Assembly: GCA_002269645.1 (NCBI GenBank)
Contig: NIVC01001921.1
Span: 157,433 to 221,432 of the forward strand
Reading direction: 5' to 3'
Source: Macrostomum lignano
Taxonomy: Eukaryota
DNA length: 64,000 bases
Every line of letters begins with the position of its first letter. The stretch's first letter is position 1. Below, one piece after another: positions 36,233 through 46,411 of this stretch. The notes under the pieces were generated by a model. That model had not been told where the DNA came from. It saw only the letters and a list, made by a program, of their open reading frames with translations, and made no database searches. A program made the translations under genes and the position numbers.

Positions 36233-37429
36233 CTAAACTGGCGACCTCAAAAGTTGATCACGTGACCTTAATAGATCGAGTGGCAAAGTGCAGCTATTTT
36301 CTGTCACGATCATCAAAGGCTTTTCAAAGCTGCCAGCAAAGACTGCAGGGCGGCTCGACTTCTCCTACTCTTTAAAAATAAATTTAAACGCCGCTCCAGA
36401 CGGGAGATCAATCAGCTGGTGGGATGGCTGCTCACTTCCACACGCTGTAAAAGTGGCTGCAGATGAGGAGCCGCTGGAACTGACGGGTTGGGAGGGACGA
36501 GCGGCGCCCTCAATTTTACCGTTCAAATTTTTTGAGAGCGATCCAAAATTAGCAGGCTCCCCTTTTTTAAACCTGGTTGTAAGTCGAATATGGGATCTCG
36601 TACTATCAAGCAAGCTCGGCTATTTTGGATTTGGGCTTTTTGGCTTAGTGTTTACCAATATTGCCCATGGATGAAAAAAAAATTTTACTCATCCAGATGG
36701 AATCACGAGGTTTTCTAGAAAAAGTGCATTTTCTGTAGAAACGTCTCAGATTACCAGTTTAGTTTCTCTTACAATTTTTGAAGATTATTTACTTGCATCT
36801 CTTTCCTGCAACTCTCTTCCTGCTCTCATTCTGTTATTCCCCAATATTTTTCTGCTTCAGTGGAAGCATTATCAAAAAAGCTGAGTACCGTGTTTTGAAT
36901 ACAAAATAATCTTGCTAGCTTGAGCTAGCTACCGTCACGATATTTAAATAGATACACCAGCGTTGTGCATAACAAACGGTATGCAAGCATTACTGAAGTA
37001 GAAGGACAGGAAGCTGCGTTTTTGGAACTTTTTTCTGGGGCAGTTTTCCATACTATCATCAAAAAAAACATCAAACAATTTTATGTACATTAAGATACTC
37101 TATAGAGGCGCTCACGTACATGTACAAATCAGGAGAGTACAATTAGTACGTGCAGGTATGCTGGAACTTCTGGAACTAAATAATGTTTCTAACGAACTAT
37201 GATGTACATGTACCATTTGTAAGCCGATCGCGTATAGAATTACCTGGTACAATCTGGAATGTACGTATACCAATCGTGCCAACTACCTGTCCAAGGAATA
37301 CTTTTAATAGAAGAATACTTAATTTACATAACATGATCTCAAACATAAAATTTGTTTGCATTTACATATATTACCTTCAAGGACGGACCCAAGGACTGAC
37401 GATTTAATTATAAGTAGTCCTTGATCAGA

Positions 37430-40400
37430 GTGAAATGGATTTAACTTAAAAAAGTCACGATAAAACGGTGTTCGACTAATGCTCGAGTGTGAATTTATAA
37501 AAAACTGATGTTTGTATTATTTTATTTATCATTAAAATTAATTAACCGCTAACTCAAATTGATTCAGCCTAAAAAACTTCACAGTGGGCATAGCGATTTT
37601 GTTTTCTTGCCTTGGAACGTATGGCGTATGCTAGGTTGCTAATCAATAAATTATTATAAATTAGCAACAAACACAACAATTATACGCTTCAATGATGGGG
37701 AAAAGTTAGACATAAAGGGTTTTTGATCAAGAAAACATTGGAAAACCGTTTTTAGATTTTAGATTATTGAGTTTATTTTCTACTAAAGGCGACGGTAAAT
37801 GGGTAAAAAGAACAAGTTATAACAAAAAATGTCTATTGTGCTAATATAAATTTATATTTCTGTGTCAAAAAAGTAGGAATCATTAAATTAAAACTATCTG
37901 CAAAATTATAAACAATTATTAAATAAATAAACAAGTTGAACACTAGCAAAGTAGATCCACAAACCATATTATAAAAGAAATAAAGTTAATCCTAACTTCC
38001 AGTTAATTTTAATAGGCTGAAAGCTTAAGATAGTGTTAAAGCCTGTCGATTTCTGTAGTGTAATTTATTTCCTATGGATTCCGTGTTCTGCAGTTTGTAA
38101 AAGCCTCTTGAGATGTTTGGTAAGCTATGTCTTAGTCTTGTGTCTTTTTGTTTTGCAATGCTAATTTTTACTCTACAGTAGGGCAAAATTGACATTCAAG
38201 ATTTCGTGCAAGAATACAGGAAGTAGAATAGGTGAAAAATTATGGCGTCTTTTTAAACCTTTACAATGCAATCACAATTTTAAAACATGGCCGATATGCA
38301 TGCGCGGTTACTAGTTATGAAGTTATGAACTTACTCAACGACTGCGTCTGTGTAAAGTTCAAAACTATGAATAAGTAAAATAACTTCACGTTAAATAATA
38401 AATTCACCCAACAGCCTGCCTAAACAAAGTCTTATGTTTAAAGAGGCCATAAAACTAATTATTTTTTGAAAAGCTCTCTACTTAGGCCCTAGCTTAGCCT
38501 TAAAAAAGAAGATTCAAGAAAACAGGAACAATGTCATTTATTATTTTTTAAATAACTATTTATGTGATCTTCCAATCCTATCATTATACCAATGGTCATA
38601 AACTAGTATCAAACATGTATCATGTCCTCTCAATTACAACTTAGTTCCCCCAATTGTGACTTAATTTTCACTTTGTATATGACTTTTCTTGCTTTTTTAT
38701 CTTTTCTTTTCTTTCTCTTTTTCTCTCCTCTTTCCCCTCTCTCTGTCTTCTCCCTCCTTTCTTTTTCTTTTTTCTTTCCTTTTTTCCTTTTTTCTTTTTT
38801 TTCTACCAATTTTTCATTTTTTTATGTTTTTGATTTTGCAACTTACATTGGCTGGCGCTGGCGGCCATTTCACTTGTCTGGCTTGGACAGGCTGGATGGG
38901 TATTGGACATGTATGACATGTATATATATACTTAGTTATCAATTATCATGTGTGCCATAGTAGAGATGGACCAAAAGCAGACTTTTAATCAAAATCAAAA
39001 TTGAAACTGAAAGTCAGCAACTTCCAAAATTGAAATAATTTCGGAAAGTTCCAAAGTTAAAATTTTTAAGCATTATAGCAATTTGCTTTTTGATGCCTAA
39101 ATTATAAATTAGAATTAGATTCAAAAATAGAAAGTTAGCCCTAACCTAATTAATTTGGACACTAGTCGTTTCAGTGATAAGTCATTTTAGTGACAGTCAT
39201 TTTGGTGACAAATAGTTGTTTTGGGGACAAGTTGTATTTGTAATAGACACTATTTTTGATAAAAAATAAGATTTTATAAGTATAGTTATTTTAGTAATAA
39301 CAGGCGCTTTATAATATTAGCTTGTAATTTTTTTGTTAATATTTATGTTTCTTATATATATATATATTTAACAATTTCCATTAAAAGATTAAAATATTTA
39401 AAAAAAGAAATCAATCTAATTATATTGTTTTCTTTTTGTGCAGATCATTTTCAATTGTCCCAGAATATTCAGACACAAACTATAAACCTATAAAAAATCT
39501 CATAAGATGACAACCACAAAAAAGTAGAGATTCATTGGACACCAATGGTATACTTAAGATTTTGAAAAGGGAAGGGATAACTTTTAGAAACAAAACTATG
39601 TAGACTAATAAAATAGTTTTTTTGCAATGTTTGCTTAGAATATACATTTAAAAGAACTAAAACCATGTTTATTTGGCTAAAAAAACTTTACTTTGTGAAA
39701 ATAAAAATAAAGCCGGCAGACGTGTATCTTGTCTATAGCATTTAAGAAACTAGGGATTCATGGAAATATCATTTAAAAAATTTGAATATTAATTTTTAGG
39801 AAAATATATGCCAATTTTTGGCAATTTTGCTAAGTCTCAGCAGCTTTATTTTGCATTTTTTAAACTTATTTTTGTTTCCTATAAATCATCAAAATGGGGG
39901 AGAGATATATCCCCGTATCCCCTTCCTAGGTACGCCACTGCTGGACACTATGGCTAGATTAGAAAACAAATTCAAAAGATCGCAACTCTGTAATTGTAAA
40001 TAAACAAAATTAAATAAAGCAATATTTAACCCTTTTAGAAAATTATAAAATTTGAAGTTAATATCCCTTAAGATTTGCTAGGTAATTTTCTGTTTAAAAG
40101 CAGAATGGCTATCACTAAAAGGATATTTTTCTTGTCACCAAAATGACTTTTGCTTGTCACTAAAAAGACTGTTACCAAAACATCTTGTCACCAAAATGAC
40201 TATAATCTATTAATTTAATAATAAGTATTTTGCAGTATGTTTTTACTTTTAACTAAGGTAGACCTAGTCCTAGGCCTTTTTTCATTTTGTTAAGCTAACC
40301 TACTATTTTAAAGTCTTTTCATTTCAATTTTTGTTTTAGTTTTTTTAGAAATCAAATATAAGCAATGTCAATGTGCATATGATTCAATAAACAAAGCTAA

Positions 40401-43240
40401 AATAAATTTTTTGTATTTTAAATTTTGTATAATCAAAACTATATTTATTAGCATTGTTGATCTACTTCATTATCACCTAGCTAAATCTTCTTAGCACACA
40501 TGTTAGGCAATAAAATTCTGGCTATTTTGCCTTAAACCATTTTAGCCATTGCAAAAAACCATTTTGCCCACAAACTAGTTCAATCATATAGGCATTTTGA
40601 TCACAATGGTGATTATATAATATACAAACATATGTATGTATTGCTAAGCTATATTTAGCTTTTAAATGCTAGTTTTTATCTTTATATATAGGCATAAAAA
40701 ATTAATAATATTGCCTCAATTTGTAGAAAGAGAGATATATGACAGAACTTCCCATTATATATTGGCTATACCTATCATACATGTTATACACAAAAGTTAT
40801 GTTTATAGCTATTATTAAACTATCATTCACTTATATTGTCACTTGTATCATTTGTGTTTTTAAGTTTTAGATAACTTAGCATCAATATTATATTGTTAGC
40901 AAAATTATTTCATATTGATAATTTTCTAAAAAGGCAAAAGTAAAGTATATAAAAGTATAATCTAAGTCATTTCAATCAAAGGAAAAGAGGCTTGAAGACA
41001 AAATAGTCCATGGCTGAATGGTCTATAAGCCAAGTGGTTTGGGGGCAAAATGTCCATGGCTAAAACAGTTTATAGGCAAAATGATCAGTTACTAGCAATA
41101 GTGCAACTTGGAATTTTTCAAGGAGGGCAAATTCTAAAAAGGTAGAGATGCAAAGAAAGGTTTTTAGCTAAAGAAAGGTTTCAAAGCTATTTAGAGCTCT
41201 ACTCATCTCTTATCTTAAATGGTATAGAGAGGGTTGGCTCTATATTTTAATAAAAAATTTGCTTGGTGCCTCCTTCCTTTGATTTTTTCTAGTCTTTGCC
41301 TAAGAGAAAGGCAACCACCCTATCCTTTCCCTCCTATTTGTACCATTAATTGCTAAGTGTAGCCTTCTAAATAGGATACAACAAATGCAATTAAATCAAA
41401 CATATTCTTTGAAATTAAAGAAATATGCCAATTTTAACAAAATGGATATTATTTTAATTAAGAAAATGTTTTATAAAGCATTTATTATATTGTTATTAAA
41501 TTATTTTTATCATTTGGGCATATTAACTGGGGTACTAAAAAGCAATCTGGGTACCAAAATACCAGGCACCAAAAACCATAGCAACTGTCACAATTAGGCA
41601 GTCCAATGAGTTGAAAAAATAGTAAAATGAATTTAAAAAAGTAAAAATGAATATAGTTCTTCTTTAAAAACATAAAAATGAGGTGAAATGATATATTAAA
41701 ATATGAAAGCTGAGAAAATTCTTTTCTTAAAATGTATAAAATTCTACAAATGGTAAAGTATACTAAAATTAATATGCTTTTTATAATTTTCCTTTTTGAA
41801 AAAATATATGCATATGACTCTTGTGAAAAATACAAAATAAGAAATTTTTTGTGTCAAACTAAAGATAATTTTTAAACAAAAAATTGTCATTTGAATTTAC
41901 TTTTTATCTGGTTTTGGTTAAGATTTATACTAAGAAATGTGAAAGAAGGTCAGTATGAGTGTTACACAACCTCAAATGTCTGTGGTGTCCTTTTCCAATC
42001 ATCATTTTTTGGTAAAAGTTAACTTTGAATTGGTCAGAAAGATGTGGAAATACCTGTGGATGAAACCAGTAATTAATTGCTGATCAGATCTAATGGTGTC
42101 AGTGTTTGCATATTCCATACCAAGTGCTTGCTTTTGGCTAAGGACTCAAAGATGAGTTCTTTCCAAAGTCTTGAAAGTCAGCAGAGTCAAAGTTTTCATC
42201 CTGTGGTCTATAGGATAGAGTAGAGCAGAAATTGCTAATCATATTTTTTTTAATCCATGGTAAGAACAGCATAAAGAAAATAAGTTCAAGAAAGTGAGAA
42301 GACAAGTTCAAGGATGGCTAGTCCACTTTGAATGACCAGTAGTCATACTCTTGCCATCCCCACATGGTGAAAACTTGACTCTGCTGACTGTTAAAGAAAA
42401 TTGATAATGGAAAAAGGACACCACAGACATTCGAGGTTGTGTAACACCATTACTGATCTTTTTCACATTTCCTGGTATAACTCTAAACCAAAACCAGATA
42501 AAAAGGAAATTCAAAGGACAGGTTTTTATCATTGAAAAATTATCTTTAGTTTGACAAAAAAAACATAAAAATTGGTCAAGCCACTAAGGAGCTGGAGCAA
42601 AGATTCTGAGAACTTTTGGGACACCCCATTGTGTATAGCTATAACTTTGTTTTTATTTTTAACAAAAATTGTATCAAGTTTTCAAAATACTTTTTTTACC
42701 AATAGGCTTGATGCTATGCATTGTTGACATCAATTTTTAATGCAGAATTTGTCATAGAATCTTTTGCAGAGATTGTTTTTTACATTTGCCTCCCACTTTA
42801 CCTATATAGAAGTTTAAGCAACCTCCAATATTATATATATATGGGTGTTTCTACAAAATGTAAACAAAAATTAAACTAAAAAAGTATAGTAGATAGTAAA
42901 ACAACTTTTAAATATATTAAAACAAGAAAATATTTTGAGACATATTAAGCAGAGTAATAGAATATAACTAGAGTTACTACTATTAATATAATCTATAGAC
43001 TATAATAGTTTCCATTGAGTCACTAACATATAATATACTAACAATAAACTCTAATATATATACTAAAGATTAAAGAAGGTATTGTCTTATATTTGTCTTT
43101 GTCTATTAATATGTGGATATAATCTTTTAAAGCAAGGCTTTTAGGTTTGAAGTAATGATATATTTGCTGGGTAGGCCTTGTCTGAGCAAATTTAGAAAAA
43201 TGTGACCACATCCCAAATTTTTTACCCTACCAATGTGCTC
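37430..43240. other. AT-rich, CpG-depleted block made of fold-back/MITE-like remnants (possibly foreign)
   Basis: Spot counts of 60-nt lines give 15-40% GC, mostly 20-30%. I found only one CG (42432) between ~39985 and 43239. Contains several long imperfect inverted repeats, no host-type minisatellites and no credible long ORF. Confidence 0.75.
41845..42560. mobile_element. ~715-bp fold-back element with ~170-bp diverged inverted arms
   Basis: 41845-42010 (..GTCAAACTAAAGATAATTTT..TTTTTATCTGGTTTTGGTT..GTGTTACACAACCTCAAATGTCTGTGGTGTCCTTTT) mirrors 42385-42560. Confidence 0.8.
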
Positions 43241-43779
43241 GCAGTATGATTGATAACACGTTTGCTTTCAATCCTGTCCAGCTTATCTTCCTGTCTGCTA
43301 AACTGAAACTGGGGTTGCCTGCCTAAAGTGCGCTTTGTACTTTTGTACTTTTGGCTGCCCTCAAATTTCAGGAGGCTCACTGCAGGCCGCCGGCAGGCCA
43401 GGCTGAGCCCCAGCGGCTGCAGCAGCGGCTTGGCGCCTCTCATATTGGCTCTGCGCAGCCACGGCGCCCGCCCACGCGCGCCACCGAGGCCGGGAGAGAG
43501 CTGAGTGCGCGCTAATTTAAACAGGCGCCGTGTAATTTTTTTAAGTAGAGAAAAAAAATTGGCAAGCTGCCAATAATCCCTCTTACATATTTTAATTAAT
43601 GACAGATTTCAGTTTGGCCTGGCAGATTTAGCTTTATTTCTATTGTTTATCAGCTAGCATTACTAAGCAATACGGGGTACTACTGTAAGTAGCTAGCAGT
43701 AGCATAGTATACCTCTAAACGCTATCCGCAACCTCAATTCTAGATAGCTAGCTAGCCAAACTGGTCCTGTCGACAATTC

Positions 43780-44311
43780 ATGGAGAAATTCAAAGCCAAG
43801 CGGGGCGGCGGCCCCAGGTTCAATATGAACGCCCGGGCGGCGGCGGTAGCGGCTGGCAGCCGGATTGCCCGCCGAGGTCGCGGAGGCCGCGTCATTCGAG
43901 GCGGAGTCGGCCGCGGTGCATTTCCGGCCGCGGGTGCAGCGGCGGCGGCACCTTGTTGGTCCAATAACGCCGGCGCTAGCAGATTCCAGCTTCATCAACT
44001 GCAGCAGCAGCAGCAGCAGTTTCGGCGGCTGCCCTACCAGCAGCAGCAGAGAACCCAGCTCATCCGTCGAGTCTGGCAAAATCGTCGGGGTCGTCGCGGC
44101 GGCGGCGTCGCTACCAGTTCGAGCTCCGCTGGCGGGGCCGCCCATCAGCAGCAGCTGCAGAGCTCCGATCCGTTGAACCTGCGCTGGGTTGCGGCGGAGA
44201 GCCAGCGCAGGGAGCTGGCCGGCTTGTCGCCGATGCCTGGTGACAGCGCGCTCGGCTCCCCGGTGCTGCCGCCCGTTGACGAGGGCGCAGCCGGCCAGGC
44301 TGCTGTGGAAG
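43780..44311 (+). CDS. MEPCE: MEPCE/Bin3 7SK methylphosphate capping enzyme, exon 1
   Basis: ATG at 43780; RG-rich and Gln-rich N-terminus with the conserved DPLNL motif. Donor GTGAGC (phase 1). Confidence 0.78.
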
Positions 44312-44352
44312 GTGAGCGAAAGGTCTTGTAGAATTGGGTCAGTTGACGATGC

Positions 44353-44437
44353 AGAATCTAAGCTGACGCGCATTCTAAGAATCTGAAGCTGACGCGCATT
44401 CTAAGAATCTAAGCTGACGCGCATTCTAAGAATCTAA
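44353..44437. repeat. 25-bp repeat GAATCTAAGCTGACGCGCATTCTAA x3 in MEPCE intron 1
   Basis: Three near-identical copies plus a partial copy. Confidence 0.88.
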
Positions 44438-44472
44438 GATCTTTCTGTAAATTCTTGATTTTCTATTCGCAG

Positions 44473-45715: not shown

Positions 45716-46411
45716 GTGGAGTCGCGGCAGCAGGAGCGCACCGGCTTCCCCTACAACGTGTTCTTCCAGGCCGGCAACTACGTGCTGGACAGCGAGGAGC
45801 AGCTGGCCAAGGTCGAGGAGAACAAATACGACATCATCCAGGCATTCAGCATCACCAAATGGATCCACCTGAACTGGGGCGATCGCGGCCTCAAATTATT
45901 CTTCCGCCGGGCGTTTCGCGAGCTCCGGCCGGACGGCAAGCTGATCCTGGAGCCGCAGCCGTTCCAGTCCTACAAGAAGAAGCTGCTCTGCCCCGAGCAC
46001 AAGCGCAACTACGCCAATATCGAGATGCGGCCGGAGAAATTTCGCGAATACTTGGAACGCGAGGTCGGCTTCGCTCATAGTCTGTACATCTCCGAGCAGC
46101 AGCAGTACCACGGATTCCAGCGACCCGTGCTCATGTGCACCAAGCCGACTGGCCGCACCCCCGCGCTGCAGGCCGCGCCGGCCCCGCACCCGCTGCCGGC
46201 TGGCACGGCCGGCGGACCGCCGAGTCGCAGCGGGCGGCCGTGGCGATGGCGGCAGTCAGCAGTGCTGCCGAGACGCCGGAGTCCATCAGGCTGGCCGCCG
46301 CTTCGCCGCCCCAGCTGGACGACGGACTGGACTCGTTTGATGAGGAGCGGGGTTTTGAGTCCGGCGGCAGCCAGCAGCAGGGAGATTAGCGCTGGCTCTG
46401 CTGGCACCTGA
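45716..46411 (+). CDS. MEPCE: MEPCE/Bin3, exon 3 (Bin3 domain C-half)
   Basis: FPYNVFFQAGNYVL, YDIIQAFSITKWIHLNWGDRGLKLFFRR, LRPDGKLILEPQPFQSY, GFQRPV. The true C-terminus may lie in another frame (stop at 46389); see findings. Confidence 0.92.
   Translation: MESRQQERTGFPYNVFFQAGNYVLDSEEQLAKVEENKYDIIQAFSITKWIHLNWGDRGLKLFFRRAFRELRPDGKLILEPQPFQSYKKKLLCPEHKRNYANIEMRPEKFREYLEREVGFAHSLYISEQQQYHGFQRPVLMCTKPTGRTPALQAAPAPHPLPAGTAGGPPSRSGRPWRWRQSAVLPRRRSPSGWPPLRRPSWTTDWTRLMRSGVLSPAAASSREISAGSAGT

Follow-up and report, generated by a model that had tools for sequence, protein, structure and literature searches.

Cytosine methylation in invertebrates such as annelids, molluscs, and cnidarians is mosaic and covers gene bodies (PMC11292947, PMC8857917). 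The targeting of gene bodies has been ascribed to binding of the DNMT3 PWWP domain to trimethylated lysine 36 of histone H3 (H3K36me3; PMC11292947, PMC9246332). For the flatworm Macrostomum lignano low methylation together with both methyltransferases has been reported (PMC10658182, PMC11292947), and the methylation patterns of free-living flatworms have been called unknown (PMC9246332). Here we analyze a window of 64,000 nucleotides of this flatworm (contig NIVC01001921.1, termed C1921, positions 157,433 to 221,432 of the forward strand; coordinates below are those of the window), in which an AT-rich block almost devoid of CpG dinucleotides (37430–43240) precedes the gene MEPCE. The block is a host intron of 5.25 kb in the 5′ untranslated region (UTR) of this housekeeping gene. 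We suggest, with a probability of about 0.7, that the CpGs of the intron were lost in place through a germline methylation which in broadly expressed genes would be limited to first introns or outrons.

The footprint of this presumed methylation shares with the mosaic gene-body methylation of invertebrates the CpG context, the presence of DNMT1 and DNMT3, the broad expression of the genes, the affected intronic transposons, and, at MEPCE, a spared promoter side (PMC11292947, PMC8857917). As it does not extend over the whole gene body, we regard it as a variant of gene-body methylation. In insects, methylation centres on exons and starts within coding sequence, whereas the flatworm footprint is intronic and ends where the coding exons begin. 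Both the honeybee type and the flatworm footprint are concentrated at the 5′ side and have a low global level (PMC8857917). In mouse cells mono- and dimethylation of the same lysine (H3K36me1/2) form a plateau in the first intron and H3K36me3 takes over downstream (PMC11465688); this domain has the same geometry as our footprint, the comparison being one of a histone domain with a sequence footprint. A literature search of limited coverage returned no published description of a footprint limited to the first intron, and the available part of an ascidian promoter paper mentions outrons and not outron methylation (PMC3333190).

The gene downstream of the block is MEPCE, as judged by the match to the human protein (E 8e-36), and its start codon at 43780 follows the end of the block by 540 nt, as given in the original prediction for this DNA. 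RNA-type contigs splice from 38119 to 43372, across the block, and the block is therefore a 5252-nt intron in the 5′ UTR of MEPCE. In the contigs of the runs X16 and X19 the unaligned letters before 43371 are equal to the window at 38089/38090–38118; in the X19 contig these letters number 102, and 30 of them were compared. The donor GTAAGC at 38120 and the acceptor TTTCAG ending at 43371 are identical in three sister contigs. The RNA nature of the runs X12, X16, and X19 is our guess, backed by a GT..AG joint (43504–43744) which is seen in these runs and is absent from the DNA run X2. The overlay of the reads spans 39000–43950, so that neither the left junction nor the upstream exon falls within it. 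The patchy coverage of the intron by X16 and X19 was left out of account. With regard to outrons, MEPCE is spliced in cis from its upstream exon; the exon start at 38017 is putative, the true transcription start may differ, and the exon may itself receive a spliced leader in trans. The features of the locus are as follows (o/e, the ratio of observed to expected dinucleotides, is used throughout as the measure of depletion; MITE, miniature inverted-repeat transposable element).

37430–38016, plus strand: AT-rich DNA with normal CpG ahead of the upstream exon; as judged by position, likely the promoter side of MEPCE
38017–38119, plus strand: upstream 5′-UTR exon of MEPCE; 3′ end from the X16 and X19 letters, start putative
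38120–43371, plus strand: 5252-nt GT..AG intron in the 5′ UTR of MEPCE, defined by its splice sites and holding the whole CpG-poor block
38400–39984, unstranded: partly CpG-depleted zone (10 CpG, o/e 0.30); transposon copies hold the majority of the CpGs that remain
39157–40210, unstranded: host element E1, MITE-like and interrupted by E2; its halves match contiguous single copies elsewhere at 80–88%
39541–39955, unstranded: host repeat E2, nested in E1, with 4 of 10 family CpG columns kept (family comparison)
39985–43239, unstranded: CpG-free core (1 CpG; TpG and CpA o/e both 1.16)
40560–41083, unstranded: short fold-back remnant with arms 40560–40587 and 41056–41083; raised repeat depth of run X2 at 41000–41150
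41845–42627, unstranded: host fold-back E4 with arms at about 41845–42019 and 42387–42563 (family alignment)
42234–42235, unstranded: insertion site of a young 790-nt MITE in the sister contig C2903 (terminal inverted repeats, 4-nt target duplication)
43372–43504, plus strand: first internal exon, 5′ UTR, GC- and CpG-rich (composition, RNA-type contigs)
43505–43743, plus strand: second intron, AT-rich and CpG-normal (7 CpG against 8.3 expected), from the GT..AG joint
43744–44311, plus strand: MEPCE exon with the ATG at 43780 (sequence and overlay; 3′ end from the sequence alone)
45740–46147, plus strand: C-terminal part of the MEPCE methyltransferase domain (match to human MEPCE)

The upstream exon has an ATG at its end, which would open a short upstream reading frame of about 12 codons that stops in exon 2 (38112–38119 joined to 43372–43402). 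Exon 2 is predicted to be out of frame with MEPCE, yet it is GC-rich like coding DNA.

Most of the earlier counts could be reproduced. The block is indeed low in GC (28.8% over 37430–43240), and the single CpG in about 3.25 kb and the ten CpGs to the left of it were found again. In the core of 3255 nt, 65.4 CpGs are expected, which gives an o/e of 0.02 and a Poisson probability of about 4e-23, even when the expectation is scaled to 0.85. The cores of the sister contigs contain one CpG (C2904) and six CpGs (C2903), five of the latter inside a young insertion. In contrast to the claimed 5.8 kb, the CpG-poor part comprises about 4.8 kb beginning at about 38400, as the left kilobase (37430–38399) is AT-rich and yet has 22 CpGs (o/e 1.01). 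The putative promoter side and start region of MEPCE are CpG-normal (14 CpGs against 14.3 expected in 37430–38119), and CpG recovers about 130 nt before the acceptor. The block had also been described as free of minisatellites. It has no long minisatellite, only short repeats of low score, but such a gap is uncommon rather than rare: 19 of 457 gaps from minisatellite to minisatellite in a sample of 994 kb reach at least 5 kb.

As possible origins a horizontally acquired segment, the cargo of a large element, an old silenced island, and a chimeric join with contaminant DNA had been proposed. A foreign or chimeric block would fit the sharp compositional contrast with the neighbours, and its left junction lies outside the read overlay. 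However, the locus is present in three contigs (C1921, C2903, and C2904) with 96–99% identity and is continuous through both junctions; run X2 covers all of the 30 bins between 39000 and 43950, and one of its contigs (42893–43757) crosses the right edge. In addition, the block contains host repeats and is spliced out as an intron. No open reading frame (ORF) above 128 codons in the list for the window overlaps it, an Rfam search and a phage search of the block gave no match, and a Pfam scan of six window ORFs near the block gave no family. Finally, comparable tracts occur every 30–40 kb (see below), an abundance which the original prediction itself had named as an argument against a foreign origin. 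Sister contigs, host MITEs, splicing, and similar tracts taken together rule out horizontal acquisition, and there is next to no chance that the block is a foreign segment, the cargo of a large element, or a chimera. A silenced island is not supported either, the block being an intron of the transcribed MEPCE gene. AT-richness was also rejected as a foreign sign: one round of CpG decay would lower the GC content of AT-rich non-tract DNA from 0.330 to 0.306, close to the tract value of 0.312, and the AT-richness is therefore no mark of foreign origin.

Three paralogous copies with about 2% divergence have been described for M. lignano (PMC10733133). Between the window (36250–44340) and C2903 and C2904 the divergence jumps at about 40500, with 17 variable columns in 4243 before this point, 104 in 2560 for 40500–43239, and 24 in 1100 thereafter; gene conversion or a mixed assembly may be the cause. 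A 25-nt repeat in the next MEPCE intron (44353–44438) has 3.4 copies in the window and many more in the sister contigs, and the contig C5097, which carries a fourth, partial copy of MEPCE, starts inside this repeat.

The fold-back elements of the block had been regarded as unrelated to each other; they are present and belong to multi-copy repeat families of the host. For E4, an alignment of 27 rows was used, in which the seven columns with CG in at least four rows were taken as the family CpG columns. Nine apparent sister-contig duplicates and four copies with mixed flanks (one depleted, one normal) were dropped and 14 rows were used. The E4 copy in the block keeps none of the seven columns, and five of them read TG or CA. 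Eight copies with depleted flanks keep 3 CpGs and have 41 TG or CA (23 TG, 18 CA) and 7 other dinucleotides, whereas six copies with normal flanks keep 27 CpGs and have 11 TG or CA and 4 others (Fisher p 1.1e-9). Thus, position and not origin erased the CpGs. TG and CA are both found at the same columns, which fits a symmetric CpG context, and non-CpG transitions at C and G amount to 3–13 per about 85–100 columns in all copies. For E2, five of six other copies keep 9–10 of the 10 CpG columns and the remaining copy, inside another depleted tract, keeps none. Two E1 copies inside tracts retain most of their CpGs, as would be expected of younger insertions, which they may be.

Conversion of CG to TG and CA is by established chemistry the signature of germline 5-methylcytosine deamination. 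The deamination put forward in the original prediction is supported by the E4 family and by the arm pair noticed there, which reads CTCAAAT at 41971 and CTCGAAT on the reverse strand at 42429–42435. The CpGs of the block were likely converted in place to TpG and CpA, the putative agent being germline cytosine methylation. Repeat-induced point mutation of fungi also erases cytosines locally in repeat-rich, AT-rich tracts; unlike this process, the loss in the flatworm is CpG-specific, depends on position, and includes unique DNA and synonymous sites. Since repeats and unique DNA both lose CpG, the block is a positional domain and not an ordinary class of host repeats. Methylation targeted to transposons would hit a family wherever its copies lie; E4 and E2 copies elsewhere keep their CpGs. 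Alternatively, MITEs in transcribed 5′ introns could trigger a methylation that spreads from them and leaves transposon-free first introns unmethylated. The tracts are rich in MITEs, and cnidarians and Owenia methylate intronic transposons of expressed genes (PMC8857917, PMC11292947). We nevertheless consider such seeding improbable, as the same family retains its CpGs at other sites, young inserts arrive where the DNA of both flanks is CpG-free already, and the depletion extends to synonymous sites of first exons.

The young insertion of C2903 (48661–49450) is a 790-nt MITE that is absent from the window copy. It has 4-nt target duplications of variable sequence, and its terminal inverted repeats start GGCTCATTCC. 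The genome contains at least 40 copies with 99% identity (39 sister copies among the matches listed). Among 11 of these 39 copies that were examined, 10 could be scored, and eight of the ten have depleted flanks, compared to 4.2% of background positions (17.5% when AT-matched; p 3e-5). This enrichment may be due to insertion preference or to retention, as both fit. At five loci CpG-bearing interruptions of tracts look by eye like recent transposons; we take them to include one SINE-like (short interspersed nuclear element) family at three loci and one Tc1-like end.

Tracts were defined by a CpG o/e below 0.2 over 800 nt with tandem repeats masked. Six regions picked without regard to composition, though from large contigs and not by random draw, contain 24 tracts in 800 kb; with the contig of the window added there are 29 tracts in 994 kb, and these comprise 5.5% of the bases and 0.5% of the CpGs. 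Among AT-rich windows the CpG o/e is bimodal, and it is 0.15 in tracts compared to 0.89 in AT-rich non-tract DNA. Extrapolation gives roughly 20,000 tracts for the genome of 764 Mb. Half of the 24 tracts (12) are located directly 5′ of the 5′-most predicted coding exon, six are chained behind such 5′ tracts (one of them doubtful), one is in the intron after a large first exon, and two are 5′ at 3.6–5 kb from the nearest predicted exon. The genes behind the tracts include MED12, CutA, riboflavin kinase, glycogen phosphorylase, TBP, PRCC, MEIS/PKNOX, and an EF-hand protein, among others. An NF1-like label for one of them was wrong, as Pfam gives MED12; NCAPD2-like and zinc-finger labels were assigned by eye, with no Pfam match in the pieces searched.

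A link to housekeeping genes was found when the gene families were chosen before their composition was viewed, with one gene taken per sister group and the family serving as a proxy for breadth of expression. Of 28 ubiquitin-conjugating and proteasome genes, 15 have a tract that ends no more than 3 kb ahead of the domain start, compared to none of 12 genes of G-protein-coupled receptors (12 of 20 planned; p 0.001). Within 9.2 kb the numbers are 19 of 28 and 1 of 12. By this proxy the footprint favours broadly expressed genes, as gene-body methylation does.

The 3′ limit of the tracts was compared in 13 tract-adjacent genes, chosen by adjacency, using AT-rich non-coding DNA in bins of 1 kb. Over the 3 kb that precede the first internal or coding exon the CpG o/e is 0.24–0.32; over the 3 kb that follow it is 0.73–0.83, with 0.86, 1.04, and 0.66 further on. 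In six further genes the downstream CpG is mostly near normal. In the genes chosen by family, change points are at or near the first coding exon; earlier ones look by eye as if interrupted by a recent transposon. A fixed distance from the start was rejected as the 3′ limit, since all tracts, whose lengths range from 1.3 to about 10 kb, stop at an exon. CutA has normal CpG (17 against 16.1 expected) directly after a tract of 1.8 kb. This gene (contig C33, about 478–481.5 kb) is located about 1.1 kb before an exon of the TTL family on the same strand, and there is a tract before CutA only; the pair is likely an operon with one tract per transcription unit.

Ordinary methylation of the whole gene body might be visible only in a long first intron if the exons are constrained. 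In agreement with this, first coding exons behind a tract lose synonymous CpG, with C before G at 101 of 191 sites compared to 155 of 208 in genes without a tract (p 7e-6). This signal is largely gone in later exons: in nine genes the frequency of synonymous C before G is 0.65 in the first coding exon (control 0.82) and 0.74 and 0.75 in later ones (controls 0.80 and 0.79). The limit is therefore a fade within the exon and not always a hard edge. As five of the six downstream bins have an o/e of 0.73–1.04, and MEPCE has 9 CpGs against 6.9 expected in intron 3 in addition to its CpG-normal intron 2, the sequence footprint does not spread over internal exons and introns and whole-gene methylation is very improbable. 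The scars before many housekeeping genes rather suggest a methylation that fades at the first internal exon.

Another explanation would be that most tracts are methylated domains upstream of the promoter and outside of the transcript, the upstream exon of MEPCE being a special case. In many cases the tract stops only tens of bases from the ATG, and the transcript evidence is for MEPCE alone. On the contrary, the joint 38119–43372 is on a contig of depth 42, equal to the depth at the next splice joint, and in one proteasome alpha gene the tract extends over the first coding exon, which is short, and over the following intron of 4 kb; this position speaks for the first intron rather than for DNA upstream of the coding region. 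Furthermore, 30% of the M. lignano genes, mostly conserved ones, are trans-spliced and hence start upstream of their first exon (PMC8629364); many tracts may therefore be outrons. Upstream domains are thus unlikely, and we prefer a methylation confined to the first intron or outron.

This preferred reading has several points against it. Tracts were placed by eye on home-made exon predictions, with gene names from Pfam; two of the 24 tracts are at sample edges and not placeable, and one (contig C108, about 110.0–112.5 kb) is 3′ of both of its predicted neighbours, one of them an SLC10/SBF gene. The transcript evidence for an upstream exon and intron comes from MEPCE and from runs guessed to be RNA, and other tracts could precede the promoter. 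No tract is found within 3 kb of 13 of the 28 housekeeping genes; four of these have one further upstream, and in three the tract precedes an apparent other gene, as expected for operons. The 3′ limit is not always sharp, since the bins downstream of one proteasome gene are low (7 of 22 and 4 of 13 expected CpGs), and the depletion leaks into first coding exons. The CC/GG o/e is 1.27 in tracts compared to 0.89 in AT-rich non-tract DNA, for which deamination alone is no obvious cause. Finally, lost CpGs are a trace of history, and this trace may persist after the methylation mark is gone.

The genome encodes DNMT1, DNMT2, and DNMT3 in three copies each, and thus the pair of DNMT1 and DNMT3 known from invertebrate gene-body methylation is present. 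DNMT3 has ADD domains and a PWWP-like part that matches DNMT3B. In all three copies this part is split over two exons, the tryptophan of the motif aligns to a tyrosine, and WFGD reads WLAE; presumably the first cage phenylalanine is missing as well. Owing to this split the DNMT3 contigs were missed by a PWWP profile search of the genome, and the first half of the domain alone gave no structure match. The 5′ region of the DNMT3 gene (contig C305) is itself a CpG-depleted tract including an AT-rich coding exon.

We suggest the following mechanism, which builds on the splicing of MEPCE transcripts across the block, on the loss of CpG by transposons within tracts and its retention by the same families outside, and on the location of the sampled tracts, which in housekeeping genes precede the first internal exon and fade within it. 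DNMT3 and DNMT1 would methylate this zone in the germline and spare the promoter, and deamination would remove the CpGs. AT-rich MITEs would land or be retained in this zone as well, and this would account for the fold-backs and for some of the low GC; methylation of the zone would likely restrain MITEs or cryptic starts. The mammalian DNMT3B follows H3K36me3, and DNMT3A in addition follows intergenic H3K36me2. It is speculative, and rather doubtful, that in the flatworm a mark of the 5′ intron such as H3K36me1/2 is read by the divergent PWWP of DNMT3 instead of the usual H3K36me3. Only tentatively do we propose the wider view that in housekeeping genes methylation moved from the gene body to the first intron or outron, up to the first internal exon, through an altered DNMT3 PWWP which recognizes the chromatin state of the 5′ intron, that it polices the main landing zone of transposons, and that it left a readable map of promoters and transcription units.

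CpG-poor blocks of this type are a warning against calling contamination or horizontal transfer from composition, and the tracts would point to upstream promoters and outrons that are otherwise hidden. Provided that methylation still follows the footprint today, the latter would be a first map for a regeneration model that has retained DNMT1 and DNMT3, and it would explain why a genome with 0.5% of the sampled CpGs in tracts looks nearly unmethylated and yet has thousands of methylated genes. In that case M. lignano would also offer a natural test of how splicing-linked chromatin limits gene-body methylation.

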